This document shows positions 5,707-32,095 of a stretch of 64,000 nucleotides of DNA, in pieces. This stretch comes from Omnitrophica bacterium GWA2_41_15. Lineage in GTDB: Bacteria > Omnitrophota > Gorgyraeia > Gygaellales > UBA12090. The position numbers were made by a program, and so were the translations under genes. The stretch lies in assembly GCA_919902675.1 (NCBI GenBank), contig CAKKRH010000001.1, positions 3-64,002 on the forward strand, in the 5' to 3' direction. Position 1 is the stretch's first letter. Each line of letters opens with the position of its first letter. The notes under the pieces are model-generated. The model was not told the DNA's origin and did not search any database. It saw only the letters and a program-made list of their open reading frames with translations.

Positions 5707-5708
5707 AG

Positions 5709-5948: not shown

Positions 5949-5975
5949 CTATAAGTAACGGTTTTTACCGTTGAT

Positions 5976-6749: not shown

Positions 6750-6795
6750 CTGTAACCGGAATTCCTCTCTTTGAGGCCGCGCGAGAACTTAAGAA

Positions 6796-7647: not shown

Positions 7648-7648
7648 T

Positions 7649-8158: not shown

Positions 8159-8171
8159 GGAGGGTTTACCT

Positions 8172-8779: not shown

Positions 8780-8780
8780 T

Positions 8781-9176
8781 ATGGCAGAATTAAAAGAGTT
8801 GTATCAGAGCGCGGATTGGAAGAAGGAAAAGCATGTCCCGGTGATTGAGGCACCGCCAAAAGCAAAAAAAGGCGAGTGGATCGCGCTTACCGTAAGCGTA
8901 GGCAAGGAAATTCCCCATCCCAATACCACCGCCCACCATATCCGCTGGATAGAGGTGTATTTCCAGGCCAAGGGAGAAAAGTTCCCATATCAAGTGGCCA
9001 GGGCCGAATTTGTGGCTCACGGCGAGTCAGCCCAGGGCGCGGATACCAGCACTATATTTACTCATCCGGAAGCCGTTTTTAAGTTTAAGAGCGATAAGCC
9101 CGGTACTATTTTTACCTCTTCCTATTGCAATATTCACGGCCTATGGCAAGGCGCCAAAGATATTGAAATAGAATAG
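8781..9176 (+). CDS. superoxide reductase (1Fe-SOR / neelaredoxin type)
   Basis: EKHVPVIE, HPNTTAHHIRWIE, CNIHGLW ligand motifs. Confidence 0.85.
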   Translation: MAELKELYQSADWKKEKHVPVIEAPPKAKKGEWIALTVSVGKEIPHPNTTAHHIRWIEVYFQAKGEKFPYQVARAEFVAHGESAQGADTSTIFTHPEAVFKFKSDKPGTIFTSSYCNIHGLWQGAKDIEIE

Positions 9177-12538: not shown

Positions 12539-12802
12539 ATGACAATCACAAAGCTTAAAGCAAAGAATCAGTTAACTATTCCCAGCGCGATAGTCAGGCG
12601 CCTGCGTTTAAAGCCGCAGGAGTTGTTCGCGATAGACATAGAGGATAATTTCATAAAATTAATCCCGGTTAAAATGGAACCGCGTTATACCGCGGAGGAA
12701 TTGAGAGCCGTTGATAATATCGTAAGCAAGGAAAAGGGCAGGGCCAAGGTTTTAAGCCCGGGAAAAGACTTTTCCGGATACATTAAGAAAATTGCCGGAT
12801 GA
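12539..12802 (+). CDS. AbrB/MazE/SpoVT-type antitoxin
   Basis: N-terminal KAKNQLTIPSAIVRRLRLKPQELF swapped-hairpin motif. 4-nt ATGA overlap with the downstream toxin. Confidence 0.7.
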   Translation: MTITKLKAKNQLTIPSAIVRRLRLKPQELFAIDIEDNFIKLIPVKMEPRYTAEELRAVDNIVSKEKGRAKVLSPGKDFSGYIKKIAG

Positions 12803-13080
12803 AGAGAGTCTTAATACTGCCGTCTTTTGAGCGTTCGCTTAAAAGATTGACTCCCAAAGATAGAAATAAACTTTCGCGCAGTCTTGAGGCCTTTAACTCT
12901 TTTCTGTTTTCCGGCGACCTTCCTCCAGGATTAGGATTCAAAAAAATAAACCATGATAAGTATGAGTTTAGAGTTGACATAAGGTTGAGGGTTATTGTGA
13001 AGGCGGAAAACGACGATTATTGTTTGGTATTGGTTGGAAATCATAACGAGGTAAAAATGTATTTGCGTGATTTTAGATAA
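12799..13080 (+). CDS. RelE/ParE (YafQ-like) superfamily toxin
   Basis: 93 aa with FERSLKRLTPKDRNKL, KYEFRVDIRLRVI and LVGNHNEV, typical of RelE/ParE-fold toxins. Confidence 0.65.
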   Translation: MKRVLILPSFERSLKRLTPKDRNKLSRSLEAFNSFLFSGDLPPGLGFKKINHDKYEFRVDIRLRVIVKAENDDYCLVLVGNHNEVKMYLRDFR

Positions 13081-13088: not shown

Positions 13089-13116
13089 TTGACATATTTT
13101 TTTTGTCTTGTATACT
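13089..13116 (+). promoter_or_regulatory. sigma70-like promoter of the sulfur cluster
   Basis: TTGACA 13089-13094, 16-nt spacer, TATACT 13111-13116. Confidence 0.5.
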
Positions 13117-13143
13117 CTACTATGTTAATGGAGATTATAGATT

Positions 13144-13584
13144 ATGCGGATAACTTATAGAGGGGATTATGCCCTGCGGGCGGTGCTGGATTTGGCAGCG
13201 CATTATAACCAGGGGGTGGTAACTATCCACCAGCTGGCCAAGAGGGCGGACGCCCCGGTGAAGTTTCTGGAGCAGGTGCTCTTGGACCTGAAGAAAGGAG
13301 GGTTTGTTGAGAGTAAGCGCGGCACAAACGGAGGGTATCTTTTATCCCGGCATCCTAAAAATATAAAGATGGGCGAGGTGGTCAGGTTCATAGATGGGCC
13401 GATTGAGCCGATTGCCTGTGTTGAGGAGCGCTATTCCGGCTGTAAGAGCATGCCGGCGTGTGTGTTAAGGAAGGTGTGCAAGGAGGTGGCCGTGGCTACC
13501 TCTAATATAGTGGATAAGGTAACATTTGAGGATTTAGCCAGCCAGGCCAAAACAGGGAAAAAGGAAGCGGTGTATTCTATTTAA
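13144..13584 (+). CDS. Rrf2 family transcriptional regulator (IscR/CymR-like, Cys-cluster type)
   Basis: MRITYRGDYALRAVLDLA wHTH N-terminus, GGYLLSR, and a CVEERYSGCKSMPAC cysteine triad. Confidence 0.85.
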   Translation: MRITYRGDYALRAVLDLAAHYNQGVVTIHQLAKRADAPVKFLEQVLLDLKKGGFVESKRGTNGGYLLSRHPKNIKMGEVVRFIDGPIEPIACVEERYSGCKSMPACVLRKVCKEVAVATSNIVDKVTFEDLASQAKTGKKEAVYSI

Positions 13585-13599
13585 GGAGGAGAAAGAGAA

Positions 13600-14334
13600 A
13601 TGAGTCTGTTGAACAATAAAGATGATTTAAAGGATTTGGTGGAAAAACTTAATTTTAAGGAGAAGGTGGATAGGTCGCTTGAGCTGATCAAAGAGGCATA
13701 TCAGAAATACGGCGATAGTATGGTAGTGGCTAACAGCTTAGGCAAGGATTCGGTCTGCGTCTGGGATTTGGCAATGAAGGTCAGCCCGAAAATCCGGGGG
13801 TTTATTGTTACTACCCGTTTTAAGCCGGCAGAGACCATCAAATTTATGAATGATGAAGTCCGTAAGTACCCCCAGCTTAAAATTTATAAGAATGATGTCA
13901 AAATTGCCGATAAGCTTTATGAGACCGATCCGGATAAATGCTGCGATCTTTTAAAAGTGGAGCCGGTCAGCCGGGCCATTGAGGAGATGCAGGTCAAATG
14001 CTGGGTTACCGGACTGCGCTGCACTGAGGGCCGCACCCGCACCGATTATAAAGAAGTTGAGGAGCGGGATAAGGGCCTGGTTAAACTTAATCCTATACTA
14101 ATTTGGAAGGAAAGAGAAGTCTGGCAGTATCTGGCAATTTACGGAGTCAGGGTTAATCTTTTATACGCCGAGGGATACCGTTCCTTAGGCTGTGCCCCTT
14201 GCACCAAGATTACCAGCGACGATAACGAACGGGCCGGACGCTGGCTGGGCACCAGTAAATGCGGCGGAGAATGCGGAATACACACCCGCCCCTTAAAGAA
14301 GGTGCGTTCAGATGACGCTTTGCAGTTAATATAA
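13600..14334 (+). CDS. cysH: phosphoadenosine/adenosine phosphosulfate reductase (CysH family)
   Basis: PP-loop-like SLGKDSVCV, LGCAPCT, and a C-terminal ECGIH catalytic motif. Confidence 0.8.
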   Translation: MSLLNNKDDLKDLVEKLNFKEKVDRSLELIKEAYQKYGDSMVVANSLGKDSVCVWDLAMKVSPKIRGFIVTTRFKPAETIKFMNDEVRKYPQLKIYKNDVKIADKLYETDPDKCCDLLKVEPVSRAIEEMQVKCWVTGLRCTEGRTRTDYKEVEERDKGLVKLNPILIWKEREVWQYLAIYGVRVNLLYAEGYRSLGCAPCTKITSDDNERAGRWLGTSKCGGECGIHTRPLKKVRSDDALQLI

Positions 14335-14342
14335 CGATTGAT

Positions 14343-15185
14343 ATGGGTTTAAAAGTTGAAAACCTGAGCAAGTCTTTCTGGCGTAAAGATGTGGGGAATA
14401 TCCCCGTCCTTGAGGATGTTAGTTTTGAGCTTAAGGACGGGGAATTTGCCTGCGTGCTTGGGCCTTCAGGGTGCGGTAAATCCACCCTGCTCAATATTGC
14501 CGGGGGCCTGGTTAAGCCGGATAAGGGCAGTGTCTGTGTTGACGGTTCCCGCGTGAGCGAACCCTCGCCGGAGCGGGTGATTATTTTTCAGGAGCCCACG
14601 CTTTTTCCCTGGATGACGGTTCTTGAGAATGTGCTTTTTGCTTTAAAGACTAAACCGATCAAGAAGCCGGATAAACAGGATATTGCCATTTCTTTCTTAA
14701 GGAAGGTGCACCTGGGGAAGTTTATTAACGCCCATCCCCATGAGCTTTCCGCGGGAATGAAACAGCGGGTGGCTATTGCCCGGGCCCTGGCCATGGAGCC
14801 GAAAATACTGCTTATGGATGAGCCGCTCAGTCTGGTTGATGACCAGACCCGTTTTATGCTTCACTATGAAATCCAGCAGATTTTTAAAGAGACCAAAAAG
14901 ACTGTTTTGTTTGTTACCAGTTCGGTGGAAGAGGCAGTATGCCTGGCGGATAGATTATTTGTTTTTTCCGCCCGGCCGGGAAAGATTTTATTTGAACAAA
15001 AAATAGGCTTTTCTCATCCCAGGAGAGAAACCGATCCCCAGTTGGTATTCTTGCAGGATAACATCAGCACTATATTGGAGAGAGAATTTGAAAAGACAGC
15101 CAAAGAGGAGATGGACATTGAATACGTTCTTACGAAGAGCGGCGTTTTGGTTCCTTTTGATCGTAATCTGGGAAGCAATATTTAG
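14343..15185 (+). CDS. ABC transporter ATP-binding protein (NitT/TauT, sulfonate/nitrate/taurine type)
   Basis: Walker A GPSGCGKST, signature LSAGMKQR, Walker B LLMDEP. Confidence 0.85.
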   Translation: MGLKVENLSKSFWRKDVGNIPVLEDVSFELKDGEFACVLGPSGCGKSTLLNIAGGLVKPDKGSVCVDGSRVSEPSPERVIIFQEPTLFPWMTVLENVLFALKTKPIKKPDKQDIAISFLRKVHLGKFINAHPHELSAGMKQRVAIARALAMEPKILLMDEPLSLVDDQTRFMLHYEIQQIFKETKKTVLFVTSSVEEAVCLADRLFVFSARPGKILFEQKIGFSHPRRETDPQLVFLQDNISTILEREFEKTAKEEMDIEYVLTKSGVLVPFDRNLGSNI

Positions 15186-15873
15186 GTTTAACGTATTTCC
15201 GGCCCGTAATTTTCCTTCCTTGTGTATGGTATTGGGAAAATTCGCCGAAGGATTTATCTCCGGAGAATATTTATTATCCCTTAAGACCAGCCTGTTGAGA
15301 ATCGGTATCGGATACAGCCTGGCAATTATTTTAGGTATTTTCTTAGGGTTAGCCATGGGCCTGGTGAAGTTTATTGACGAGGGTGTAAGCGGGATACTCC
15401 TGGGCCTGCAGTCAATGGGACACGCGGCCTGGGTGCCTTTCGCGGTTTTATTCTTTGGGGAAAATGAACTGGCGGTTATTTTTATTGTCCAGATAAGCGC
15501 GATGATTGTAATTACCCTGAATACCGAAAGCGGGATAAAGTTTGTTTCACCCCAGCTCATAAACCAGGCGCGCATCAGCGGGATAAAGGGGGTAAGCCTG
15601 TTTCGGGAGGTGGTGTTGCCGGCGGCAGTGCCTTCAATAATTACCGGGATGCGCTTAGGCTGGGCTTTTTCCTGGCGGGGATTGGTTACGGCGGAGATTT
15701 TGGTTTCGGGCTTGGGTATCGGCCACATCCTTATGCGGGCCAAGGAGCAGAAAGATATGGCCTATGTTATGGCGACAATGCTTTTGATTGCCTCTATTTC
15801 TATTATTGTGGACAATCTGATTTTTAAGAACCTAGAGAACAGCGTGCGTCGGCGCTGGGGAATAGCAAAGTAA
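15088..15873 (+). CDS. ABC transporter permease (SsuC/TauC-like)
   Basis: Six-TM BPD-transporter-like ORF. The track start overlaps the ATPase by 98 nt. A TTG at about 15118 behind AGGAGA is a more likely start. Confidence 0.75.
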   Translation: MKRQPKRRWTLNTFLRRAAFWFLLIVIWEAIFRFNVFPARNFPSLCMVLGKFAEGFISGEYLLSLKTSLLRIGIGYSLAIILGIFLGLAMGLVKFIDEGVSGILLGLQSMGHAAWVPFAVLFFGENELAVIFIVQISAMIVITLNTESGIKFVSPQLINQARISGIKGVSLFREVVLPAAVPSIITGMRLGWAFSWRGLVTAEILVSGLGIGHILMRAKEQKDMAYVMATMLLIASISIIVDNLIFKNLENSVRRRWGIAK

Positions 15874-15875
15874 AC

Positions 15876-15903
15876 CCAAAATCAAAATGCGAAAATCAAA
15901 ATT
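15876..15903. repeat. heptanucleotide array (CAAAATN x4)
   Basis: CCAAAAT CAAAATG CGAAAAT CAAAATT spanning the permease/JAMM junction and the first JAMM codons. Confidence 0.55.
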
Positions 15904-16306
15904 ATGGGTAAAAAGGGAGATTTACGATGAGCTTCTCCGGCACTGTCTGAGAGAGCCGGCAAAGGAGTCCTGCGGCATACTGGCCGGCCGCTCCGGCAGG
16001 ATAGAGAGGATTTTTCCCTTAGCCAATATCTCTGATACTCCCAAACTTTGTTATATGATTGACCCTAAGGAACAACTTTCAGTTTTTAAGGAACTGCGCG
16101 AGGATAATTTGGAGTTAACAGCGATATATCACTCCCATGTGGATGTTCAGGCTTACCCGTCAAAAAAAGATGTGGAGCTGGCTTTTTATCCGGAGAGTTC
16201 TTATGTTATAATTTCCCTAAGCAAACAAAAACCGCCTGAGACGCGCTCCTTTAGGATCATCGAGGGCAAGATTGAGGAAGAAGAATTAGAAATAGTTAGT
16301 AATTGA
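15887..16306 (+). CDS. JAMM/MPN+ (Mov34) metalloprotease, Mec/QbsD/HcyD-like
   Basis: ESCGIL (catalytic Glu) and HSHVDVQAYPSKKD (HxHx7Sx2D JAMM motif). Confidence 0.8.
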   Translation: MRKSKLWVKREIYDELLRHCLREPAKESCGILAGRSGRIERIFPLANISDTPKLCYMIDPKEQLSVFKELREDNLELTAIYHSHVDVQAYPSKKDVELAFYPESSYVIISLSKQKPPETRSFRIIEGKIEEEELEIVSN

Positions 16307-16309
16307 TTT

Positions 16310-17326
16310 ATGTATAAATTAAAGAGACTACGCGTGAGTAAAGCAATGAGAGATTTGACGGCTCAAGTCAACTTGGGCATTCACAATCTGGTTATGCCTT
16401 ATTTTGTCCGCGAGGGCAAAAAGATAAGACAGCCCATAGAGGCGATGCCCGGGGTTTTTCGTTTTTCGCGGGATGAATTATTGAAAGAAGTTGAACAGTT
16501 AAGGCTTGCCGGTGTCCATTCGCTTATCCTCTTTGGCCTGCCCGGGGAAAAAGATGATGCCGGTCTAAAGGCCTATTCTGAAAACGGGGTTATTCAAAAA
16601 GCGGTCCGGGCCTTAAAGAAAAATTTTGGCGATGAACTGGCAATAATTACCGATGTCTGTTTGTGCGGCTATACTAAGCATGGGCATTGCGGCATCTTAA
16701 AAAGGCAAAAGGCAAAAGGCAAAAGGCAAAAAGAATTTTCTATTGATAATGATGAGACGCTAAAGGTTTTGGTTAAGATTGCCCTTTCTCACGCCCGGGC
16801 TGGGGCGGATATTGTGGCTCCCAGCAGTATGATGGACGGCCAGGTTCAGGCCATTCGCCAAGAGCTGGATAAAAATGGTTTTAGCGAAACCGCGATTATG
16901 GGCTATTCCGCTAAGTTTGCCTCTAACTTTTACGGGCCTTTCAGGGAGGCCGCCGGTTCCGGGATGAAATTCGGTGATCGAAAAAGCTATCAAATGGACT
17001 TTAGAAATTCGGATGAGGCTTTAAGGGAAATTGAGGCGGATATTCAGGAAGGCGCGGATATACTGATGGTCAAGCCGGCGCTGGCCTATCTGGATATAAT
17101 CGCTAAAGCCAAAGAAAGATTCGCCGTTCCTTTAGCCGCGTTTAATGTCAGCGGGGAGTATAGTATGGTAAAAACATACTGTAAGTCCACAGTCCACAGT
17201 CCACAGTCCACAGGAATAGAAAAAGAGCTGGCTTTGGAGATTTTGACCGCGATAAAAAGAGCCGGCGCAGACATAATTATTACTTATTACGCGAAAGAAG
17301 CGGCTGGATGGCTGAAGAAAACCTAA
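16310..17326 (+). CDS. hemB: porphobilinogen synthase (delta-aminolevulinate dehydratase)
   Basis: CLCGYTKHGHCG zinc site, ADIVAPSSMMDGQV, VKPA active-site Lys, NVSGEYSM, KRAGADIIITYYA. Confidence 0.9.
   Translation: MYKLKRLRVSKAMRDLTAQVNLGIHNLVMPYFVREGKKIRQPIEAMPGVFRFSRDELLKEVEQLRLAGVHSLILFGLPGEKDDAGLKAYSENGVIQKAVRALKKNFGDELAIITDVCLCGYTKHGHCGILKRQKAKGKRQKEFSIDNDETLKVLVKIALSHARAGADIVAPSSMMDGQVQAIRQELDKNGFSETAIMGYSAKFASNFYGPFREAAGSGMKFGDRKSYQMDFRNSDEALREIEADIQEGADILMVKPALAYLDIIAKAKERFAVPLAAFNVSGEYSMVKTYCKSTVHSPQSTGIEKELALEILTAIKRAGADIIITYYAKEAAGWLKKT
16704..16731 (+). repeat. (GGCAAAA)x4 heptanucleotide array inside hemB
   Basis: GGC recurs at 16704, 16711, 16718 and 16725. The array is translated as KRQKAKGKRQK directly after the HGHCGIL zinc-site motif. 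Confidence 0.85.
17184..17212 (+). repeat. (AGTCCAC)x4 heptanucleotide array inside hemB
   Basis: GTCCACA at 17185, 17192, 17199 and 17206. The array is translated as KSTVHSPQST between NVSGEYSMVK and EKELALEIL. Confidence 0.85.
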
Positions 17327-18546
17327 CAAACTACAAATTACAAACTACAAACTACCACCTTTTTCGCGAAGCAAAAAAGGTTATCCCCGGCGGAGTAAAT
17401 AGCCCGGTGCGCTCGTTTAAGGCGGTGGGAGGCGCTCCGGTTTTTATCAAAAAGGCCTCCGGCTCAAAATTTCTCGCTGAAGACGGTAAAACCTATATAG
17501 ATTACTGTATGTCCTGGGGGGCGTTATTATTAGGCCATGCTCACTCTGAGGTTGTATCCGGGGTAAAAAAGGCGGTTGAAAAAGGCACCAGCTACGGCGC
17601 GGCTACCAAGGCCGAGACCGAATTCGCCAAGATTATTACTCGAGCCATTCCTTCCTGCGAGCTGGCGCGTTTGGTCTCATCAGGTACTGAAGCGGCGATG
17701 TCGGCAATCCGGGTTGCCCGGGGTTATACCAGGAAAAATAAAATCATTAAGTTTAAGGAATGTTATCACGGCCACAGCGATTATTTCTTATCGGGAAAAA
17801 GCGCCGGCATCCCGGAAAATATAAGCCGGGATGTCTATAGTCTTGATTATAATAACTTAGAGCAAGCGGAAGAAGCCTTAGAAAAAGATAAGGATATTGC
17901 CTGCGTGATTGTTGAACCGATCGCGGCCAATACCGGTTTGATCCTGCCTTTAAAAAGTTTCTTAGAAGGCCTGCGCAAGCTGACCTTAAAGCATAAAGCC
18001 CTGCTTATTTTTGATGAGGTGATTACCGGCTTTCGTTTTTGTTTTGGAGGCGTCCAGAATATCTTTGGGATTATCCCGGATTTGACCTGTTTAGGCAAGA
18101 TTATTGGCGGGGGTTTTCCTTTGGCCTGCTTTGGGGGAAAAAAAGAAATTATGCGCCACCTTGCTCCACTGGGAAGCGTTTATCAGGCCGGCACATTATC
18201 CGGAAACCCGGTCGCGGTCCAGGCCGGGCTTAAAACTTTAGAAATTATCAAAAAGCCCGGTTTTTATAAAAGGCTCAATGAAAAAGCCGGGTCTTTTTAT
18301 AAAAAAATAGACGGAATAATTGAAAATAAGAAAACGAATATTGTCTTAAACCGTTTTGGGGCGATGTTTCATTTCAGTTTTAAAGATAAAAAACAGTTCA
18401 GCGGATTTTTTCATAATCTATTAGCCCAAGGGATTTATCTTTCGCCGGCAGGCGATGAGGTGTGTTTTGTCTCGGCGGCGCATACGGATAAAGATTTTGA
18501 AATAACTTTAAAAGCATTGAATCATTTAAAAGAGAGGTTGGTATGA
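17308..18546 (+). CDS. hemL: glutamate-1-semialdehyde 2,1-aminomutase
   Basis: LFREAKKVIPGGVNSPVRSF, FDEVITGFR, LGKIIGGGFP (PLP Lys). Confidence 0.9.
   Translation: MAEENLTNYKLQTTNYHLFREAKKVIPGGVNSPVRSFKAVGGAPVFIKKASGSKFLAEDGKTYIDYCMSWGALLLGHAHSEVVSGVKKAVEKGTSYGAATKAETEFAKIITRAIPSCELARLVSSGTEAAMSAIRVARGYTRKNKIIKFKECYHGHSDYFLSGKSAGIPENISRDVYSLDYNNLEQAEEALEKDKDIACVIVEPIAANTGLILPLKSFLEGLRKLTLKHKALLIFDEVITGFRFCFGGVQNIFGIIPDLTCLGKIIGGGFPLACFGGKKEIMRHLAPLGSVYQAGTLSGNPVAVQAGLKTLEIIKKPGFYKRLNEKAGSFYKKIDGIIENKKTNIVLNRFGAMFHFSFKDKKQFSGFFHNLLAQGIYLSPAGDEVCFVSAAHTDKDFEITLKALNHLKERLV
17327..17354 (+). repeat. (CAAAYTA)x4 heptanucleotide array at hemB stop / hemL N-terminus
   Basis: CAAACTA CAAATTA CAAACTA CAAACTA, translated as the NLTNYKLQTTNYH extension of HemL. 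Confidence 0.8.
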
Positions 18547-18803
18547 TTACTATCGTCCTTAACGGAAAGAAAGAAGAATTGGAAAAAGAATTGACGGTTT
18601 TGGAATTATTAAAGAAGAAAAATATCCGCCCGGAAGTGGTGACAGTGGAATTAAACGAGAAAATCCTTGGCCGTCAGGAATTTGAGCAGACAATTATCCG
18701 GAATAATGATAAAATAGAGTTTGTTTATTTTATGGGAGGCGGCGGTTCGACTCAGCTGCCTTCGGCAGTTTTGCTCACCGTTGTAGAGTCGAAGGAGAGG
18801 TGA
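18543..18803 (+). CDS. ThiS-like sulfur-carrier (ubiquitin-fold) protein with 18-aa extension after the GG motif
   Basis: 68-aa ThiS-like core ending FVYFMGGGG, followed by STQLPSAVLLTVVESKER. ATGA overlap with hemL. Confidence 0.65.
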   Translation: MITIVLNGKKEELEKELTVLELLKKKNIRPEVVTVELNEKILGRQEFEQTIIRNNDKIEFVYFMGGGGSTQLPSAVLLTVVESKER

Positions 18804-18804
18804 T

Positions 18805-19737
18805 ATGCCATTTTCAGATAAAGTTGCCAATAATGTCTTAGAGCTTATTTGTAATACCCCGATTATCCGGCTTAACCGCTTGCCGGATAAGGATTCGGCG
18901 GTTATCTATGCCAAGTTAGAACAGTTTAATCCCGGAGGCTCGGTTAAAGACCGGATATGTTTGTCTATGATCCAGGAAGCTGAAAAAGAAGGCCTGCTTA
19001 AAAGCGGCTCAACCATAATTGAGCCGACCTCCGGTAACACCGGCATAGGCCTGGCAATGGTGGGAGCGGTAAAGGGTTGCCGGGTAATTCTGACTATGCC
19101 TGAGACTATGTCTATAGAGAGGATATATATCCTGAAATCTTTGGGCGCGGAAGTAGTGCTTACCCCGGGGATAGAGGGAATGAGCGGGGCAATCAAAAAG
19201 GCGGAGGAGCTTCTGAAGAATACCCCGAATAGCTTTATGCCGCAGCAATTTAAGAACAAGGCTAATCCCAAAATACACCGCGAAACCACCGCCAGGGAAA
19301 TCTTGAATGTTCTGGGAAATAAAATAGACGCCTTTGTATGCGGCGTAGGCACCGGCGGGACTATTACCGGTGTGGGGGAGGCCTTAAAAGAAAAGAATCC
19401 TAGGATAAGAGTTATCGCGGTTGAACCGGAGGCCTCGGCGGTCCTTTCCGGAGAAAAGCCGGGCGCGCATAAAATCCAGGGGATAGGCGCGGGATTTGTT
19501 CCTGAGATATTAAACCGCGAAGTTATTGACCGGATTATCAAGGTTTCAGATAACGATGCTTTTAAGACGGCCAGAAGATTAGCCAAAGAAGAAGGATTAT
19601 TCGTGGGGTTATCCAGCGGGGCCGCGGCCTGGGCCGCCTTAAAAATAGCCCAGGACTTAGGAAAAAATAAAACCGTAGTTACCATATTTCCGGATACCGG
19701 GGAAAGATACGGGAGTATGCAGCAATACTTTGAGTGA
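18805..19737 (+). CDS. cysK: cysteine synthase (O-acetylserine/O-phosphoserine sulfhydrylase, CysK/CysM family)
   Basis: NPGGSVKDR PLP-Lys motif, TSGNTG, GVGTGGTITG. Confidence 0.9.
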   Translation: MPFSDKVANNVLELICNTPIIRLNRLPDKDSAVIYAKLEQFNPGGSVKDRICLSMIQEAEKEGLLKSGSTIIEPTSGNTGIGLAMVGAVKGCRVILTMPETMSIERIYILKSLGAEVVLTPGIEGMSGAIKKAEELLKNTPNSFMPQQFKNKANPKIHRETTAREILNVLGNKIDAFVCGVGTGGTITGVGEALKEKNPRIRVIAVEPEASAVLSGEKPGAHKIQGIGAGFVPEILNREVIDRIIKVSDNDAFKTARRLAKEEGLFVGLSSGAAAWAALKIAQDLGKNKTVVTIFPDTGERYGSMQQYFE

Positions 19738-19744
19738 GAATAAA

Positions 19745-22102
19745 ATGTTTAAACTGCCTAACGAAGTAAAAGAGAGCATAAAAAATTACCGTAGTTCTTT
19801 GGAAGACCTGCTTAGCGGAAAAATCAGCCCGGCGCGCTTTACCGGCGTGCGGGTGCCCTGGGGGCTTTACAGCCATCGCGGGGGCAAGGTCTTTATGAGC
19901 CGCGTCCGGATTCCCGCAGGGCAGGTCAGCGCCGAACAGCTTAAGGCCATCGCGCGCTGCGCCCGCGCCTATGGGAATGGGATCACTCATATCACCACCA
20001 GGCAGGATATCCAAATCCATGAAGTAAAGATTGAAGATACGATTAAGGTTATTGAGTATCTGAAGGATTTTGAGCTTTCTCCCCGGGGCGGAGGAAGCAA
20101 TACCGTGAGGAATGTTACCGCTTGTGTTTTCTCCGGGATATGTCCGGATGAGGTCTTTGATACCGCCGGATACGCCATTTCTCTCACTGAATACCTTCTG
20201 GCCCAGGACAGTTCCTTTAACCTGCCGCGTAAATTCAAGGTTGCTTTCTCCGGATGCGCTAAGGACTGCGCGGCGATAGTGGTTAATGATGTCGGACTCT
20301 TAGCTAAAATAAAAGACGGGCAAAAAGGTTTTCAGGTTTTTGTCGGCGGAGGAATGGGCGCGGAGTCGCTTACCGGGCATCTCTTGGAGGAGTTTATCTC
20401 CGAGGCTGAGTTAGGTTATTGCGTCAGCGCCGTCAAAAATGTGTATTCCAAGCAAGGCGACCGCCGGAATAAGCACCATAACCGCTTAAGGTTTTTGATT
20501 AAAGATAACGGTATGGATGTTTTTAAGAAATGGTATCAGGAGGAGTTAAGAGTATTGAAAGAGGCCGAATACATCAACTTGAGGAATATTGAACCGGCGT
20601 CTCCTCAAGTCTCTGGCGGGGATATCCCTAAGGTGGAGGATAAAGACTTTAATGAATTTATAAAATACAATCTTATTGAACAGAAACAAAGCGGTTTAGT
20701 GATTGTGGAATTAAGGATTCCCCGGGGTGACCTTCCCGCGGATAGGCTGGAGAAAATCGCCGCGTTGGAAAATTATTTTCCCGGCCTGGAATACCGGGCT
20801 TCCCAGAATCAAAATCTTTGCCTTTGTAATATCCGAAAGTCCGATACCCATGAGTTGTTTTTAAAGCTGAAAGATATTTTAGAGGATTTTATCTATCCGG
20901 ACAGCCTCCAGGATGTGGTCTGCTGTAAGGGCGCGCTTACCTGTAATCTCGGCCTATGTAATTCACCGGCTTTGACCGAGGAGCTGGAGAAGCTGATAAG
21001 AGATAATTTTATCGCAAAGGCAGTGCTGAAAAAGATAAATATCAAGATAAACGGCTGTCCTAATGCCTGCGGCCAGCATCCCCTGGGGCTTATTTCCCTG
21101 CACGGAATGGTGCGCCGGGTAGGCGGGCATCCGGTTCCCTTTTATAAACTGCTTTTAGGAGGCAGGAAAGGCATTACCCTGACCCGCCTGGCTAAAGACA
21201 CCAAACTGATGATACCGGCTAAGAACTTGTTATTGTTCTTTAAGGACTTCCTGGATAAAATAAACAGCCAGATTGATGAAAATACGGATATCTATAGTTA
21301 TTTTGATGAACAGGCGGAAAGCGCGGCCAGAGAGATTACCCAGCGCTACGGCTATGTTCCGGCTTATTCGGAGAATAAGGATTATTACATTGATTGGGGC
21401 AGAAGCGAAGAGTTTTCCCTGGAGGGTATGGGGCCGGGTGAGTGCGGCTCAGGGGTTATGGATATGATTGATACGGATTTAAGCGATGCCAAAATTCATC
21501 TGGAAGCCGCGCGCGAAGATAATTATTCTGTCCAGGAAATAAAGAAGGCTTTATTCTTCAGCGCCCGGGCCCTTTTGGTGGTGCGCGGAGCTGACCCCCG
21601 GGATGAATTAAGCGCCTTAAATGATTTTGTGGAAAAGTTTGTCCGGGCAGGATTGGCTGATGGCAAATTTTCCCGGCTTAAAGAAGTATATGTCTCTTTA
21701 TCTGAAGGCCTAAGCCCTAAAGAGAAGGAAGAGAAATTTTTATACGCCCAGGAATATCTGGAACACATAAAAGAAGTATATAAAAATATGGACCCCCAGT
21801 TTAATTTTCCTAAATATTCCGCCCCTGTCTCTCAACAGGAGGTAAAAGTAGAAGTTGAGCCATCGGAAGTTAAATCTCCGGTTTTGGATTTAAAGGGGGT
21901 ACGTTGCCCGATGAATTATGTCCAGGCGAAATTATACTTAGAGAATATCAAGATCGGCGAGACGGTTGAGATATGTTTAGACGAGGGTGAGCCGATCCAG
22001 AATGTCCCGGTCAGCCTTAAAAACGACGGCCAGGAGATCTTAGGGATTACAAGAATAGAGAATTATTATAAGGTGCTGGTAAAAAAATTAGTTGATAGTT
22101 GA
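19745..22102 (+). CDS. assimilatory-type sulfite reductase (NIR_SIR siroheme/4Fe-4S) fused to C-terminal TusA/SirA-like domain
   Basis: TACVFSGIC...SGCAKDC and CCKGALTCNLGLC...NGCPNAC cluster motifs. C-terminal LDLKGVRCPMNYVQAKL...GETVEICLDEGEP is TusA-like. ATG 19745 is preferred over track GTG 19730. Confidence 0.75.
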   Translation: MFKLPNEVKESIKNYRSSLEDLLSGKISPARFTGVRVPWGLYSHRGGKVFMSRVRIPAGQVSAEQLKAIARCARAYGNGITHITTRQDIQIHEVKIEDTIKVIEYLKDFELSPRGGGSNTVRNVTACVFSGICPDEVFDTAGYAISLTEYLLAQDSSFNLPRKFKVAFSGCAKDCAAIVVNDVGLLAKIKDGQKGFQVFVGGGMGAESLTGHLLEEFISEAELGYCVSAVKNVYSKQGDRRNKHHNRLRFLIKDNGMDVFKKWYQEELRVLKEAEYINLRNIEPASPQVSGGDIPKVEDKDFNEFIKYNLIEQKQSGLVIVELRIPRGDLPADRLEKIAALENYFPGLEYRASQNQNLCLCNIRKSDTHELFLKLKDILEDFIYPDSLQDVVCCKGALTCNLGLCNSPALTEELEKLIRDNFIAKAVLKKINIKINGCPNACGQHPLGLISLHGMVRRVGGHPVPFYKLLLGGRKGITLTRLAKDTKLMIPAKNLLLFFKDFLDKINSQIDENTDIYSYFDEQAESAAREITQRYGYVPAYSENKDYYIDWGRSEEFSLEGMGPGECGSGVMDMIDTDLSDAKIHLEAAREDNYSVQEIKKALFFSARALLVVRGADPRDELSALNDFVEKFVRAGLADGKFSRLKEVYVSLSEGLSPKEKEEKFLYAQEYLEHIKEVYKNMDPQFNFPKYSAPVSQQEVKVEVEPSEVKSPVLDLKGVRCPMNYVQAKLYLENIKIGETVEICLDEGEPIQNVPVSLKNDGQEILGITRIENYYKVLVKKLVDS

Positions 22103-22117
22103 TAGTTTATGGTTTAT
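22090..22117. repeat. heptanucleotide array (GTTGATA GTTGATA GTTTATG GTTTATA)
   Basis: Read directly across the sulfite reductase stop codon. Confidence 0.75.
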
Positions 22118-22144
22118 AGCAAACCTAAACTAAAGGAGCAGGCT

Positions 22145-23419
22145 ATGAGCTATGTGTTAGGTTTAAAATGCCGGGAATGTGGCCGGGAATACCCTAAGGA
22201 TGTTTTGTTTGTCTGCGAGTATTGCTTTGGCTCTTTAGAAGTAAATTATGATTACAAAGCTATCAAGAAAAACCTGACCAAAGAAACTCTCTTGGGCCGT
22301 CCCAAAAATATGTGGCGCTATAAGGAGCTCCTGCCCATTGATAAAGACCCGGCAGTCGGGCTAGATTCAGGATATACTCCTTTGATTAAGGCGAATAATT
22401 TGGCCAGGGTTTTGGGAGTGAGAGAGCTTTATCTCAAAGACGATTCCGTAAATCATCCAACCTTGTCTTTTAAAGACAGGGTGGTCTCCGTGGCTATCTC
22501 CAAGGCCAGGGAATTTGGTTTTGACACCGTGGCCTGCGCCTCAACCGGCAATCTGGCTAATTCCGTCTCGGCCCAGGCCGCATCCTGCGGGCTAAAGGCT
22601 TATATTTTTATTCCGGCTGACCTGGAAACAGGTAAGGTGGTAGCCTCGCAGATTTATAATCCCAACCTTATCGGTATTGAAGGAAACTATGATGAGGTTA
22701 ACCGTCTTTGTTCGGAGATTGCCTCCAGATACCGCTGGGCCTTTGTGAACATCAATATCCGTCCCTTTTACGCCGAGGGCTCCAAGTCAATGGGGTATGA
22801 GATTGCCGAGCAATTGGATTGGAAATTGCCCAAACATATTGTGGTGCCGTCAGCAGGCGGCTCGTTGATTACTAAGCTTTGGAAGAGCTTTAAGGAATTG
22901 AAAGAGCTGGGATTTCTGGAGAAGGCGGATACTAAGGTTTACTGCGCCCAGGGCCAGGGCTGCGCCCCGATAGTTACCGCGATCAAGGAAAAGTCCGAGG
23001 TAATTCGGCCGGTTAAGCCCAAGACTATTGCCAAGAGCCTGGCGATCGGAAATCCCGCCGACGGATATTATGCCGTAGACACGGTGAGAAAATCCGGCGG
23101 TTTTGCTGAGGAGGCCTCTGACGAAGAAATTGTAGAGGCAATAAAATTATTAGCCAAAACCGAAGGAATTTTCACCGAGACCGCCGGAGGGGTTACTTTG
23201 GCGGCAGCCAAGAAGCTAATCGAGCAGGGGATTATTCCTAAAGACGAGTCAATTGTCATCTGCATTACCGGAAACGGCCTTAAGACCCTGGAAGTGGTTA
23301 CTAAGTCTTTGCCCAGGCTGGTGAAAATCAAACCAAACTTAGCCAGTTTTGAAGAGCATATTAAAAACGGCGCGCACCAGAAGATTTCCGAGAACAAGGT
23401 TATTGAGTATTATATTTAA
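22145..23419 (+). CDS. threonine synthase-like PLP enzyme with N-terminal zinc ribbon (MetM-like candidate)
   Basis: CRECG...CEYC zinc ribbon, HPTLSFKDR PLP-Lys motif, ASTGNLANS. ATG 22145 behind AAGGAG is preferred over track start 22109, which lies in the heptad array. Confidence 0.8.
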   Translation: MSYVLGLKCRECGREYPKDVLFVCEYCFGSLEVNYDYKAIKKNLTKETLLGRPKNMWRYKELLPIDKDPAVGLDSGYTPLIKANNLARVLGVRELYLKDDSVNHPTLSFKDRVVSVAISKAREFGFDTVACASTGNLANSVSAQAASCGLKAYIFIPADLETGKVVASQIYNPNLIGIEGNYDEVNRLCSEIASRYRWAFVNINIRPFYAEGSKSMGYEIAEQLDWKLPKHIVVPSAGGSLITKLWKSFKELKELGFLEKADTKVYCAQGQGCAPIVTAIKEKSEVIRPVKPKTIAKSLAIGNPADGYYAVDTVRKSGGFAEEASDEEIVEAIKLLAKTEGIFTETAGGVTLAAAKKLIEQGIIPKDESIVICITGNGLKTLEVVTKSLPRLVKIKPNLASFEEHIKNGAHQKISENKVIEYYI

Positions 23420-23430
23420 GGAGGAAAGAA

Positions 23431-23718
23431 ATGATGGCAAAAGTTAAGGTGAGGATTCCGGCGCCCCTGCAGAAGATTACCCAGAATAAACAGGAGGTAA
23501 TTGCTGAGGCAAAGAATATCAAAGAGCTGATTCTGGATTTAGAGAAACAGTTTCCGGGGATGAAAGACCGCCTGCTGGATGAAAGCGGGAAGATTCGGCG
23601 TTTTATTAATTTCTATGTTAATGATGAGGATATTCGTTTTCTGAAACAGGACGAAACCCAGTTAGTTGAGGGAAGTGAAGTTTCCATAATTCCCGCTATT
23701 GCCGGCGGCCTAAAATAG
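23431..23718 (+). CDS. MoaD/CysO-like sulfur-carrier protein with GG followed by 2 extra residues (LK)
   Basis: 95-aa beta-grasp-like ORF ending SIIPAIAGG-LK. GGAGG RBS. Confidence 0.65.
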   Translation: MMAKVKVRIPAPLQKITQNKQEVIAEAKNIKELILDLEKQFPGMKDRLLDESGKIRRFINFYVNDEDIRFLKQDETQLVEGSEVSIIPAIAGGLK

Positions 23719-23740
23719 TTTATAACTAAGAGGAAAAAAG

Positions 23741-24565
23741 ATGGCGTTAACTAATGAGCAGATTGACCGGTATTCCCGGCAGATAATTTTACCAAATGTC
23801 GGGGGTAAGGGCCAGGATAAGATTCTTAAAAGCAAAGTTTTGGTTATCGGAACCGGCGGCCTGGGGGCGCCCTGCAGTTTTTATCTGGCCGCCGCCGGGG
23901 TGGGAAAAATCGGTTTAGTGGATTCGGATAAGGTTGAGTTGAATAACCTGCAAAGACAGATTGTGCATACTACTTTGGATGTAGGCATACCCAAGGTTGA
24001 ATCCGGGAAGAAACGGTTGAACGCCTTAAATCCGGATACCGAGGTAGTTACCTATAATTTAAGGTTAGATTCCGGTAATATTCTGGATGTGATTAAAGAT
24101 TACGATATCGTGGTGGACGGCTCGGATAATTTCCCCACCCGTTATTTAGTCAATGATGCCTGCGTGATTGCTAAAAAACCTTTAGTGCATGCCGGAATTT
24201 TTCGTTACGACGGCCAGATTATGACTATCCTGCCGGGGAAAGGCCCTTGTTACCGCTGCCTGTTCCCGGAGCCGCCTCCGGCCGGGGCTGTGCCCAGTTG
24301 TCAGGAGGGAGGGATACTCGGGGCAGTGGCCGGGGTTTTGGGAGTGCTCCAGGCCAATGAGGCCCTGAAATTTATCCTGCAAAGCGGAGAGCTTTTATCC
24401 GGAAGGCTGTTGATATTTAACGCCTCAGATGCTTCTTTTAGGACAGTTAAAGTGCCTAAGGATAAAGATTGTCCGGTTTGCTCAGAACATCCCACAGTTA
24501 CCAAATTAATTGATTATCAGGAATTCTGCAGTTTGAAGCAGAATAAGGATTGCAGTATAAAATAG
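23741..24565 (+). CDS. ThiF/MoeB/HesA family E1-like adenylyltransferase (no rhodanese domain)
   Basis: RYSRQIILPNVG, GTGGLGAP nucleotide loop, DNFPTRY, CYRC and CPVC zinc pairs. Confidence 0.85.
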   Translation: MALTNEQIDRYSRQIILPNVGGKGQDKILKSKVLVIGTGGLGAPCSFYLAAAGVGKIGLVDSDKVELNNLQRQIVHTTLDVGIPKVESGKKRLNALNPDTEVVTYNLRLDSGNILDVIKDYDIVVDGSDNFPTRYLVNDACVIAKKPLVHAGIFRYDGQIMTILPGKGPCYRCLFPEPPPAGAVPSCQEGGILGAVAGVLGVLQANEALKFILQSGELLSGRLLIFNASDASFRTVKVPKDKDCPVCSEHPTVTKLIDYQEFCSLKQNKDCSIK

Positions 24566-24571
24566 GAGATA

Positions 24572-24814
24572 ATGATGGCAAAAAGAATAATAAAGCTTAC
24601 TTTCCCCAAGGATCTGATTAAAGAACCTTTAACCTTCACTATGGCTAAGAAATATAATATTATGCCCAATATCCGCCGGGCCAAGGTTACCGAGAGCGTG
24701 GGGGAGCTGGTTCTGGAGTTAGACGGCCAGGAGCAGGATTTGGATAAGGGCGTTGAGTTTTTGAAGAAGTCAGGGGTAATTGTGGAATCTATCGTCGGAG
24801 ATGTAATCGGGTAG
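24572..24814 (+). CDS. NIL domain protein
   Basis: 80 aa. The IIKLTFPKDLIKEPLTFTMAKKYNIMPNIRRAKV pattern resembles the NIL domain of MetN C-termini and methanogen homocysteine-synthesis partners. Confidence 0.6.
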   Translation: MMAKRIIKLTFPKDLIKEPLTFTMAKKYNIMPNIRRAKVTESVGELVLELDGQEQDLDKGVEFLKKSGVIVESIVGDVIG

Positions 24815-24837
24815 GGGCGAACGGACCTTCGCCCCTA
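24812..24837 (+). terminator. GC-rich hairpin at operon end
   Basis: TAGGGGCGAA cggacc TTCGCCCCTA, a 10-bp perfect stem that includes the stop codon. No T-run follows. Confidence 0.4.
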
Positions 24838-24852
24838 GCGTGAATTACTAAA

Positions 24853-26975: not shown

Positions 26976-27542
26976 ATGATCAATCCATATCTTATTTCTA
27001 CTAATCATCAGAAAGTTTTAAGCTTCTTCGTCCTTCATCCGGGCGCGTCTTTTTATGAGAGGGAAATCGCGCGTAAGAGCGGCTTGAGCCCAAGTTCAAC
27101 CCACTATGTTTTGACGCGTCTTTATCGGGCGGGCGTGATTAACCGAAATCAAAATGGCCGGATGTATTTTTATTTTGTTGATGCGACAAACCCTTATCTT
27201 AAAGAGTTTAAGGGCTTGGCTAATTTGCTTTTAATTGAGCCTTTGGTGGAAAAGTTGAAAGGATTAAGCCATAAAATAGTCCTCTTTGGCAGCTGGGCAG
27301 AGGGAAGCGATAATAAGGATAGCGATATAGATCTATTTATTGTCAGTTTTGAAAAAGAAAAGGCGCTATCAGTAATCAATAAATTCTCTTATTCCGCTAA
27401 ACTCTGTAATCGCAAGGTCCAGCCGATTATCAAGTCTCCGGAAGAGCTTTTAAGAAAAGGTAAAGAAAAAAGCGTATTCTTTGAGCAAGTAGAGAAAGGG
27501 AAAGTCCTCTGGGAAAGGGAGATTAATGACGATATCCTTTAA
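26976..27542 (+). CDS. wHTH-fused minimal nucleotidyltransferase (MNT-type antitoxin)
   Basis: N-terminal wHTH (YEREIARKSGLSPSSTHYVLTRL) followed by the GSWAEGSDNKDSDIDLFIV NTase motif. Confidence 0.7.
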   Translation: MINPYLISTNHQKVLSFFVLHPGASFYEREIARKSGLSPSSTHYVLTRLYRAGVINRNQNGRMYFYFVDATNPYLKEFKGLANLLLIEPLVEKLKGLSHKIVLFGSWAEGSDNKDSDIDLFIVSFEKEKALSVINKFSYSAKLCNRKVQPIIKSPEELLRKGKEKSVFFEQVEKGKVLWEREINDDIL

Positions 27543-28237: not shown

Positions 28238-29104
28238 ATGATACAACTTTTGATGGGAATCATAATTCTTGCAATTGGTGCTGTCTGTATGTGGATGGGT
28301 GGAAAAATGGCTGAAAAAGGTTTGGAGAAATTGTGCAATCAGACTAAAACTATTGAGCACGCGAATGAATCGATAGGATTTGACATAAAAGCAAAAAGGT
28401 CAGAAATTGAAGATAATACAGCAATGGACAACAAAATAGGTTTTAAAGTAAAAATGGAAGATTCCACTTTTAAAAGAAATACTTCAAAAGGCACTCTAAC
28501 TGATAAAAAAGGACAAGCAACAGAAACTAAGAATATGGAGATAGTAAAAACAAATAATCAAAATGACAAAAAGGGCAAAATAATCGGAAACTTAATAATA
28601 AATTGTAATGTTGGAGTTAGTGGCAGTTTTGACGATACTGAAATAAAGCATAACTTAACCGATAGTGATGTGTTAAATAAAAAAAGTGTAGTAGAAAAAA
28701 TTAATATTTTAGACAACAATTTGTTAAATTTTGAGAAAATAAAAGATAGTAAATCAATATTCGAGCAATCTAGTTTTTATCAGACTACTTCCGAAAGCTA
28801 TGGAGCCTATGGAGAATGGGAAAAAGCTATAACTTATGCCTATAAATCGTTTGAGTTGTATCTTAAAATCCCATTAGGAGATAACCCATTCATTAAAACA
28901 GAAAAAGATAAAGAGGATGCCGCCTTATTTCTATGTGCAAAGCTTAACTTTTATGCAAATACTGTTAGAAAAGAGAGCGGCAAAAATTACATTTATTTTT
29001 TAAATGAATTACTAAAATTAGCAAAAAGAAATAACAGTACCAAAGGAATAAAAATATTGGAAGAAAGAATAGCTTTAGAAAAATCGGGAGATTTAAAAAA
29101 ATAA
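28238..29104 (+). CDS. hypothetical membrane-anchored protein, AT-rich gene
   Basis: 288-aa ORF with one N-terminal TM helix and a K/N/I-rich composition. The DNA is visibly more AT-rich than its surroundings. Confidence 0.45.
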   Translation: MIQLLMGIIILAIGAVCMWMGGKMAEKGLEKLCNQTKTIEHANESIGFDIKAKRSEIEDNTAMDNKIGFKVKMEDSTFKRNTSKGTLTDKKGQATETKNMEIVKTNNQNDKKGKIIGNLIINCNVGVSGSFDDTEIKHNLTDSDVLNKKSVVEKINILDNNLLNFEKIKDSKSIFEQSSFYQTTSESYGAYGEWEKAITYAYKSFELYLKIPLGDNPFIKTEKDKEDAALFLCAKLNFYANTVRKESGKNYIYFLNELLKLAKRNNSTKGIKILEERIALEKSGDLKK

Positions 29105-32053: not shown

Positions 32054-32095
32054 TAGATTTTGCGTTTTTTAAGGTTGTATATTATAATATTTCCT

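Follow-up and report, generated by a model that had tools for sequence, protein, structure and literature searches.

In the window analysed here, a stretch of 64,000 nucleotides (nt) from Omnitrophica bacterium GWA2_41_15, an uncultured groundwater bacterium of the Candidatus Omnitrophota (assembly GCA_919902675.1, contig CAKKRH010000001.1, positions 3 to 64,002), positions 13089-24837 hold 14 tightly packed genes on the plus strand, identified with Pfam and NCBIfam models, that together make up a sulfur-assimilation cluster. We consider it probable that the cluster is one operon bringing sulfur into both cysteine and homocysteine by way of protein thiocarboxylates, and that a single E1 adenylyltransferase, a single JAMM peptidase and a sulfite reductase fused to TusA (Sir-TusA) would be shared by the two branches. 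The merging of a cysteine and a homocysteine branch in one operon had been proposed in a preliminary description of this DNA; the proposal is supported by the identities of the genes, by pairings conserved among relatives and by natural fusions of the paired proteins, all of it sequence evidence. Each gene named in that description as part of a co-directional cluster is present in its place on the plus strand, and the intergenic gaps within the 14-gene cluster range from -19 to +38 nt. The features are as follows:

13089..13116, plus strand: sigma-70-like promoter candidate TTGACA-16-TATACT, 28 nt 5' of the ATG of the Rrf2 gene; 11 of 12 positions match, a consensus match only

13144..13584, plus strand: Rrf2-family regulator with a C-terminal cysteine cluster of the Fe-S-binding type (Pfam Rrf2, E = 3.4e-36)

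13600..14334, plus strand: CysH, thioredoxin-dependent (phospho)adenylyl-sulfate reductase of the adenylyl sulfate (APS) type, sulfite-producing (PF01507; NF002537)

14343..15185, plus strand: ATPase of an ATP-binding cassette (ABC) transporter, Sao/Tau/Ssu/Nrt-like (PF00005)

15088..15873, plus strand: ABC permease, SsuC/TauC/NtrB-like, with an uncertain start codon (PF00528)

15887..16306, plus strand: JAMM/MPN+ metallopeptidase, Prok-JAB (PF14464, E = 1.4e-23)

16310..17326, plus strand: hemB, porphobilinogen synthase (NF006762, 451 bits against a cutoff of 297)

17308..18546, plus strand: hemL, glutamate-1-semialdehyde aminomutase (NF000818, 524 bits against a cutoff of 398)

18543..18803, plus strand: ThiS-type sulfur carrier of 86 amino acids (aa) (TIGR01683, 71 bits against a cutoff of 37)

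18805..19737, plus strand: CysK-type O-acetylserine sulfhydrylase (TIGR01139, 453 bits against a cutoff of 351)

19730..22102, plus strand: NirA/Sir-like sirohaem sulfite reductase fused to TusA, 790 aa (PF01077, PF03460, PF01206)

22109..23419, plus strand: ThrC-like (MetM-type) pyridoxal phosphate (PLP) enzyme of 436 aa with an N-terminal CxxC-x12-CxxC zinc ribbon, a predicted homocysteine synthase

23431..23718, plus strand: MoaD/CysO-type sulfur carrier, MetO-like, 95 aa (PF02597)

23741..24565, plus strand: MoeB/UbaA-type E1 adenylyltransferase of 274 aa without a rhodanese domain (PF00899, E = 7.6e-83)

24572..24814, plus strand: stand-alone NIL-domain protein, 80 aa (PF09383, E = 1.5e-16)

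24811..24838 (about), plus strand: GC-rich hairpin overlapping the NIL stop codon, without a U tract (dG -23.7 kcal/mol, z = -4.7)

In the proposed pathway, CysH would convert APS to sulfite, which the sirohaem sulfite reductase would reduce, hemB and hemL supporting the supply of its cofactor. The TusA domain fused to the reductase may replace the rhodanese domain that the E1 lacks and help to deliver the sulfur. The JAMM peptidase is predicted to trim the C-termini of both carriers to Gly-Gly, taking 18-19 aa off the ThiS-type carrier and Leu-Lys off the CysO/MoaD-type carrier; the single E1 would adenylate both, and reduced sulfur would convert them to thiocarboxylates (-COSH). ThiS-COSH and CysK, most likely with O-acetylserine, would give cysteine, and the thiocarboxylate of the MoaD-like carrier, the MetM-type ThrC paralogue and O-phosphohomoserine would give homocysteine. 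By analogy with Mec and HcyD of the characterised systems discussed below, the JAMM peptidase is also predicted to free the amino-acid product from its carrier. Our best guess for the NIL protein, a conserved third partner of the homocysteine module, is that it may act as a methionine/homocysteine sensor or adaptor, as the NIL domain of MetN would suggest, and the Fe-S-type Rrf2 protein would regulate the operon.

The pairing of each carrier with its enzyme extends well beyond the window. A one-genome-per-species scan returned 549 ThrC-like relatives, of which the best 80 loci were kept (L001 and so on) and searched with all window proteins by tblastn. They come from Omnitrophota, Elusimicrobiota, Saganbacteria, Margulisiibacteriota, Ratteibacteria, Nitrospirota, Methylomirabilota, Binatia, Aquificota and other groups. 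The adjacency of carrier and enzyme, which had been noted in the window only, is conserved across many phyla: the MoaD-like gene lies at most 500 nt 3' of the ThrC-like gene in 61 of the 73 assessable loci, and a ThiS-like gene, where there is one, stands directly 5' of CysK (16 of 16 loci). Of the loci, 49 have flanks of 3 kb or more on either side; 40 of these contain the E1 gene, 34 NIL, 31 a CysK-like gene, 16 TusA and 15 JAB. Both carriers, in the full layout, are found in 16 loci (L002-L010, L016-L018, L020, L023, L025 and L036); this layout is common in public metagenome-assembled genomes (MAGs) and not unique to the window. Other lineages arrange the parts differently. The Nitrospirota layout reads TusA-E1-JAB-ThrC-like-MoaD-NIL, and loci of the Binatia type read E1-ThrC-like-MoaD-(divergent CysK-like)-NIL, with one carrier between two PLP enzymes. 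In L043-L064 and similar loci, from MAGs labelled Binatia or 'Deltaproteobacteria', the CysK-like protein has 40-46% identity and JAB is usually missing from the locus; the Binatia-type CysK-like enzyme lies at about the same distance from CysK, CysM and the CysM of Mycobacterium tuberculosis (200-224 bits).

A second search, begun from two fusions of ThiS to CysK, recovers the order JAB-hemA-hemC-cobA/hemD-hemB-hemL-ThiS::CysK-Sir-TusA-(ThrC-like)-MoaD-E1-NIL, with an APS/PAPS reductase (PAPS, 3'-phospho-APS) upstream in L082, a JGI metagenome contig. The upstream flank of L082 (1-212) encodes a protein with NIL and ferredoxin domains, like the one that serves homocysteine synthesis by way of DUF39. 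The ThrC-like gene is shortened (152 aa) or missing in 'bacterium Unc6' and a related assembly (L083 12243-12958 and L084 2514-2972), and ThiS::CysK, Sir, TusA, the MoaD-like carrier, E1 and NIL are kept; this could mean that the homocysteine branch is decaying there, or that the assembly is at fault.

Natural fusions tie the same partners together as single proteins. ThiS and CysK form one open reading frame (ORF) in 8 of the 16 two-carrier loci (L002 at 7755-8885, L005, L007, L010, L017, L020, L023 and L036), with the junction ...YYMGGG|(S/L)PFS.... A search of a collection of 5.8 billion proteins with the ThiS-like protein alone gave 112 matches with almost no full-length fusions, owing to the limits of the word index, and a fused ThiS::CysK query was used instead. 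All of the best 120 matches to it (P0113-P0232) combine ThiS and PALP domains in 377-419 aa, nearly all in 377-379 aa; those that bear a name are called only 'cysteine synthase (A)'. The junction YM-GGG-(S/L/M)PFS is conserved among these best 120 matches. Met1 of the window CysK (MPFSD...) aligns to the residue just past the GGG of the fusions, and therefore the window carries a split version of ThiS::CysK, in which an 18-aa tail, a stop codon and a Shine-Dalgarno sequence lie between the Gly run and the ATG of CysK. The identical 86-aa ThiS-like protein is annotated in a Candidatus Omnitrophota MAG at NCBI and recurs in independent groundwater assemblies; these copies rule out a frameshift or sequencing artefact as the origin of the split or of the ThiS tail.

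The MoaD-like carrier has fusion partners of its own. It is joined at AGG to the E1 in L008 (11262-12340), L009 (5583-6650) and L036 (11244-12300), to an E1 with rhodanese domain in the Acidobacteriota loci L075 (6714-8150) and L079, and to NIL in L016 (11254-11790), L018 (11260-11775) and L041 (1815-2325). In all of the fusions the Gly-Gly is internal, so that the protein has to be cut before its carrier part can be adenylated by the E1, and this would be a clear job for the JAMM peptidase. A JAB gene is commoner in loci where the MoaD-like carrier has a tail of at least 2 aa (odds ratio 12.6, p = 0.0014, phylogeny ignored), an association that is only suggestive.

The ThrC-like enzyme of the homocysteine branch is, judged by sequence comparison, a paralogue of true threonine synthase and not ThrC itself. 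It scores 172-202 bits against four solved bacterial ThrCs (Aquifex, Bacillus, Thermus and Mycobacterium), against which the canonical thrC product of a Nitrospirae MAG (L029, 10335-11357) scores 423-492 bits, the 492 being to Aquifex ThrC. In L029 this canonical thrC comes right after the NIL gene of a ThrC-like/MoaD-like/NIL set, placing both paralogues in one locus; the window protein is 37% identical to the canonical one. A tblastn search of annotated records found a closer counterpart in Nonomuraea gerenzanensis, with 50% identity along a stretch of 420 aa that takes in the zinc ribbon. The preliminary description had asked which of the two kinds the ThrC-like ORF resembles and had named its zinc ribbon: the CxxC-x12-CxxC motif is there at the N-terminus, and the protein does not group with bona fide ThrC. 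As a candidate identity, true ThrC is ruled out by the scores against the solved structures and by the identity to the L029 protein.

The Nonomuraea gene lies directly 3' of an S-adenosylmethionine (SAM) riboswitch (RF00162, 68.7 bits against a gathering score of 44.4) and is followed by a 91-aa ORF that ends in AGG and is 47% identical to the MoaD-like protein of the window. Riboswitch, ThrC-like gene and carrier are all unannotated in this record (L081 4858-6548, NZ_LT559118.1), a replicon of 11.85 Mb that PLSDB lists as 'plasmid I'. The metM gene of Streptomyces albulus is likewise reported 3' of a SAM riboswitch (PMC12172450), and in the MetM/MetO pathway MetM works with MetO as carrier, Mec as JAMM hydrolase and MoeZ as E1 (bioRxiv 10.1101/2024.10.14.618325). 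In the window, the MoaD-like gene starts 11 nt 3' of the ThrC-like gene. The best solved match of its product is CysO of M. tuberculosis (3dwg_C, E = 5.6e-17), and its C-terminus reads ...SIIPAIAGG followed by LK; in relatives the end SI(I/V)PAIAGG is near-invariant, with a variable stretch of 0 to about 20 residues behind it.

For the cysteine branch, the only genuine solved matches of the ThiS-like carrier are the ThiS proteins 2k5p and 1tyg. Its C-terminus reads ...FMGGGG, the Gly run being residues 65-68, followed by the 18-aa tail. Both small ORFs of the cluster thus belong to beta-grasp carrier families, as had been assumed, by the TIGR01683 score of the one and the CysO match of the other. 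The enzyme beside the ThiS-like carrier is of the CysK type: it passes TIGR01139 and falls under the cutoffs of the CysM models (TIGR01138, 305 bits against 394; NF008735, 286 against 413), CysK proteins head its solved matches, and M. tuberculosis CysM is absent from the best 60. The parallel to CysO-CysM that had been drawn therefore holds for the presence of a pair of carrier and PLP enzyme and fails in its members, as the carrier is ThiS-type, the enzyme CysK-type, and the CysO-type carrier sits in the homocysteine branch.

The shared components also agree with what had been described. In the 790-aa sulfite reductase, two NIR_SIR modules are followed by about 190 uncharacterised residues without a Pfam match and then by a C-terminal TusA domain. 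The Cx5C...Cx3C motif of the sirohaem/[4Fe-4S] type is kept in both pseudo-halves (residues 132/176 and 399/443); monomeric NirA/SiR enzymes are not known to keep more than one such motif. The Cys-Pro of TusA is invariant among relatives, and TusA is fused to Sir in the window and in L003, L007, L008, L009, L017 and L022, elsewhere being a separate gene. The single E1 is a ThiF-family protein of 274 aa to which the MoeB, UbaA and MoeZ models all align over the E1 core only, with no rhodanese domain; rhodanese-less E1s in operons of this kind were noted in 2006 to be always accompanied by SirA/TusA (PMC1779556). The JAMM motif E...HSHx7SxxD is intact, and the best solved matches of the peptidase are 2kks and PfJAMM1. 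The NIL protein resembles the C-terminal domain of the methionine importer MetN. Several relatives hold the whole set of sirohaem precursor genes, hemA-hemC-cobA/hemD-hemB-hemL, inside the cluster, with hemA, hemC and cobA/hemD between JAB and hemB (L002, L017, L082, L083); on this ground hemB and hemL of the window may be read as cofactor supply for Sir.

A number of points weigh against this scheme. The genes sat, cysE and thrB were not found in the 64-kb window, where most ORFs of at least 110 aa were scanned, nor were hemA, hemC and cobA/hemD found among the scanned ORFs. The presumed orthology of the ThrC-like enzyme to MetM rests on the Nonomuraea gene as a proxy and not on the S. albulus sequence. 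In the actinobacterial type, none of NIL, TusA, E1 and JAB was found within 5 kb of the metM-metO locus, so that the roles given here to NIL and TusA are ones that we infer. The weakest points of the scheme are the loading of TusA with sulfur by a six-electron sulfite reductase, the role of NIL, and the preference of CysK for ThiS-COSH. As to the last, the ThiS-like protein passes an equivalog model made for thiamine ThiS, the CysK is an ordinary enzyme of its type (388 bits to Geobacillus CysK), and an orthologue with 71% identity in L001 has no ThiS partner. Because the enzyme is ordinary and the L001 orthologue stands without ThiS, CysK may use free sulfide also or instead.

The same facts speak for an alternative in which only the homocysteine branch depends on a carrier. 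CysK would then use free sulfide, and the ThiS-like protein would carry sulfur for thiamine or another cofactor, its place next to CysK or fused with it reflecting that cysteine is the usual sulfur source of ThiS. On this alternative it counts that both proteins pass their equivalog models, thiS and cysK, and that Thi4, ThiM and ThiE genes directly follow the cluster in L082 (15482-17738); the thiazole synthase in question, however, is of the Thi4 type, which is not known to need ThiS. Linkages of ThiS to cysteine synthase in Chlorobi were read in this manner by Iyer et al. (PMC1779556). Partners of the thiG, thiH or thiF type were found neither among the scanned window ORFs nor in any surveyed cluster, which sets the window ThiS apart from the ThiS-ThiF-ThiG system of thiamine synthesis. 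Moreover, at least 120 sequence clusters keep the fusion of ThiS to CysK with its invariant GGG junction, and shared regulation by itself would hardly account for this. We judge this alternative unlikely.

In another account the E1, the JAMM peptidase and both small proteins would form a ubiquitin-like conjugation system, similar to archaeal SAMPylation, that modifies the sulfur-assimilation enzymes reversibly, regulates them and does not carry sulfur. The top NCBIfam matches are indeed archaeal, with SAMP1 for the MoaD-like protein, the SAMP-activating E1 UbaA (345 bits) and the desampylase for JAB, and SAMP1 and HvJAMM1 are reported to regulate a metabolic enzyme through conjugation (PMC4443979). 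These matches, however, all lie under their curated cutoffs, and the MoaD-like protein is nearest to CysO, for which sulfur carriage is proven. That the carriers are strictly paired with PLP beta-/gamma-replacement enzymes and a sulfite reductase fits the characterised thiocarboxylate pathways, and in archaea conjugation and sulfur carriage are not mutually exclusive. We regard conjugation as very improbable as the function of the system. Hardly credible is a third account, in which the ThrC-like protein is the threonine synthase of the organism, the MoaD-like carrier and E1 serve molybdopterin, and the clustering is coincidental: the protein does pass models for threonine synthase (PRK08197 with 325 bits, the cutoff being 303; TIGR00260), but MetM is routinely misannotated as threonine synthase according to the GapMind preprint (bioRxiv 10.1101/2024.10.14.618325), the enzyme is distinct from canonical ThrC and both kinds coexist in L029, the Nonomuraea orthologue is under a SAM riboswitch, no moaE or other molybdenum cofactor gene occurs in any surveyed cluster, and the ThrC-like gene keeps its carrier as a neighbour across many phyla.

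The operon with two carrier-dependent branches, which we prefer to these accounts, would be bounded by the promoter candidate and the Rrf2 gene on one side and by the NIL gene on the other. An inverted repeat of the regulator type was sought at the promoter and none was found; an Rfam scan of the whole window gave no family at the gathering score, and no S-box or T-box. The Rrf2 protein falls below the cutoffs of the NCBIfam models for CymR and IscR, and the related clusters L001, L003 and L025 are also headed by an Rrf2 gene. At the far end, the preliminary description had the cluster close with a terminal hairpin. A stable hairpin does lie at the NIL stop codon, but it lacks a U tract and was not called in a scan for terminators, and rlmB begins 38 nt past NIL; from the missing U tract and the closeness of rlmB it follows that termination at this site is not established.

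Among the genes of uptake and activation, CysH scores 166 bits with NF002537 against a cutoff of 154 and is assigned to the Fe-S type of APS reductase because it has the motifs CC...CxxC and ECGIH. The top NCBIfam matches of the ABC ATPase are SaoA and the taurine and nitrate transporters, all under their cutoffs, and the gene caller on an independent assembly makes the permease 200 aa long. The importer named earlier is thus present as ATPase and permease, but a gene for its substrate-binding protein was not found in the cluster. The modules for uptake and activation differ among relatives: some have a PHO4-type permease, some ATP sulfurylase with TauE, and some an ABC transporter with a binding protein of the NMT1 type, as in L016.

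Each part of the cluster has a counterpart in a known system, and the closest is MetM/MetO, published in 2024 (Hasebe et al., as summarised in bioRxiv 10.1101/2024.10.14.618325 and PMC12172450). In S. albulus, as in the window, the gene of a ThrC-family PLP enzyme has directly behind it that of a carrier of about 90 aa with a terminal AGG, and the MetM/MetO pathway requires a JAMM peptidase (Mec) and an E1 (MoeZ); the window pair shares its 50% and 47% identity with an actinobacterial pair under a SAM riboswitch. In contrast, the window has no SAM riboswitch and its operon is headed by an Rrf2 gene, the riboswitch being probably non-essential to the family. The window also keeps E1, JAMM, TusA and NIL in the same cluster, unlike the actinobacterial locus, its E1 lacks the rhodanese domain of MoeZ, and its operon contains a second pair of carrier and enzyme.

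The CysO-CysM-Mec(+MoeZ) system of M. tuberculosis shares with the window the principle of a thiocarboxylated beta-grasp carrier feeding a PLP cysteine synthase, a JAMM peptidase encoded alongside, and a carrier of the CysO kind. It differs in that the neighbour of the cysteine synthase in the window is a ThiS-type and not a CysO-type carrier, that the enzyme is CysK-type and not the O-phosphoserine-specific CysM, that the CysO-type carrier pairs with the ThrC-like enzyme, and that the E1 has no rhodanese domain. Mec and MoeZ are also the names of the JAMM peptidase and the E1 in this system; if they denote the same enzymes as in the MetM/MetO pathway, two branches sharing E1 and JAMM would already have a dispersed precedent.

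In Wolinella succinogenes, homocysteine is reportedly made by HcyS-HcyF-HcyD-Sir-MetY (attributed to Krishnamoorthy and Begley, 2011, which is reference 34 of PMC5764234). That system resembles the window in a carrier extension past Gly-Gly that is removed by a JAMM peptidase, in a rhodanese-less E1 and in a sulfite reductase encoded in the cluster as sulfur source. The homocysteine enzyme of the window, however, is a ThrC paralogue of the O-phosphohomoserine type and not the O-acetylhomoserine sulfhydrylase MetY, a gene of the Cys_Met_Meta_PP family was not found in the cluster or among the scanned window ORFs, and the window has two carriers to the one of Wolinella.

The 'Class 4e' sulfur-metabolism neighbourhoods were described by Iyer, Burroughs and Aravind in 2006 (PMC1779556), and ThiS/MoaD, JAB, rhodanese-less E1, SirA/TusA, PAPS reductase, sulfite reductase and ABC transporter, all of which belong to them, are all in the window. 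In the window, though, TusA is fused to Sir; PMC1779556 lists O-acetylhomoserine sulfhydrylase and has no occurrence of ThrC or threonine synthase, and two carriers, the ThiS::CysK fusion and NIL are not described in it. The route through DUF39 and a NIL/ferredoxin protein in methanogens and Desulfovibrio (PMC5764234) likewise ties a NIL-domain protein genetically to homocysteine formation; the window NIL differs in standing alone, as 80 aa that include no ferredoxin domain, DUF39 is absent, and the partner is the ThrC paralogue.

The preliminary description knew of no account of the combined architecture. We found none in the literature searched, but the class has been known since 2006 and MetM/MetO since 2024, so that the claim of novelty stands for the combination and not for its parts. 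The search also turned up no described ThiS::CysK fusion and no dual-carrier operon; its coverage was incomplete, which makes this weak evidence of absence. New in comparison with the systems above are the merging of both branches in one operon, the pairing and frequent fusion of a ThiS-type carrier with a CysK-type enzyme, the fusion of a MoaD-like carrier to E1 or NIL, and the recurrence of NIL and TusA as partners of MetM/MetO.

A more far-reaching reading, which we hold to be doubtful, is that the operon encodes a self-contained relay, ubiquitin-like in its logic, that avoids free sulfide. Sir would hand its sulfur straight to the fused TusA, in a manner resembling the loading of DsrC by DsrAB, a comparison for which it counts that both halves of Sir retain the Cx5C...Cx3C motif, and TusA would load two ubiquitin-like carriers activated by the E1. 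The carriers would be made as precursors or polyproteins joined at Gly-Gly to a client or partner and would be released by the JAMM peptidase acting as a 'deubiquitinase', a bacterial metabolic counterpart of the eukaryotic ubiquitin-fusion precursors. In such a relay NIL would be a methionine/homocysteine-sensing subunit of a MetM-MetO complex.

Other genes of the window lie outside the cluster. Directly upstream of it, an ORF of 982 aa (9506-12454) has no Pfam match, and the same holds for ORFs at 28238-29104, 32060-33496, 34231-34902 and 35359-36132. A run at 2310-9176 encodes a cysteine desulfurase-like Aminotran_5 protein, peroxiredoxins (one of them fused to pterin-4a-carbinolamine dehydratase), VIT1, DJ-1/PfpI, hemerythrin and desulfoferrodoxin, a set typical of an oxygen-stressed anaerobe. 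The operon is flanked by small modules resembling toxin-antitoxin and nucleotidyltransferase systems (12539-13080, 26976-27542, 55142-55777 and 58094-59606); among them are a MazE-like antitoxin just upstream of the operon, proteins with helix-turn-helix (HTH) and nucleotidyltransferase domains, and an AbiEi-like protein with NTP_transf_8.

The fusions ThiS::CysK, MoaD::E1 and MoaD::NIL predict which of these proteins are partners and, for bacterial JAMM peptidases, a role in the processing of ubiquitin-like precursors that are linked through Gly-Gly. Outside actinobacteria, NIL and TusA stand out as components of the MetM/MetO system that are conserved and uncharacterised. Public labels for the key proteins are 'threonine synthase', 'ThiS' and 'cysteine synthase A', and with such labels automated metabolic reconstruction would probably overlook the homocysteine route as well as the dependence of cysteine synthesis on a carrier; the lineages affected include Omnitrophota, Elusimicrobiota, Margulisiibacteriota, Nitrospirota, Binatia, Aquificota and others. 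Aquifex aeolicus has been listed as lacking every known homocysteine pathway (Price et al. 2018). The pair of ThrC-like enzyme and MoaD-like carrier occurs in loci from Aquificaceae and Hydrogenothermaceae MAGs (L065, L070, L072, L077 and others), and its presence in Aquificota therefore makes it a candidate to fill the homocysteine gap of Aquifex.

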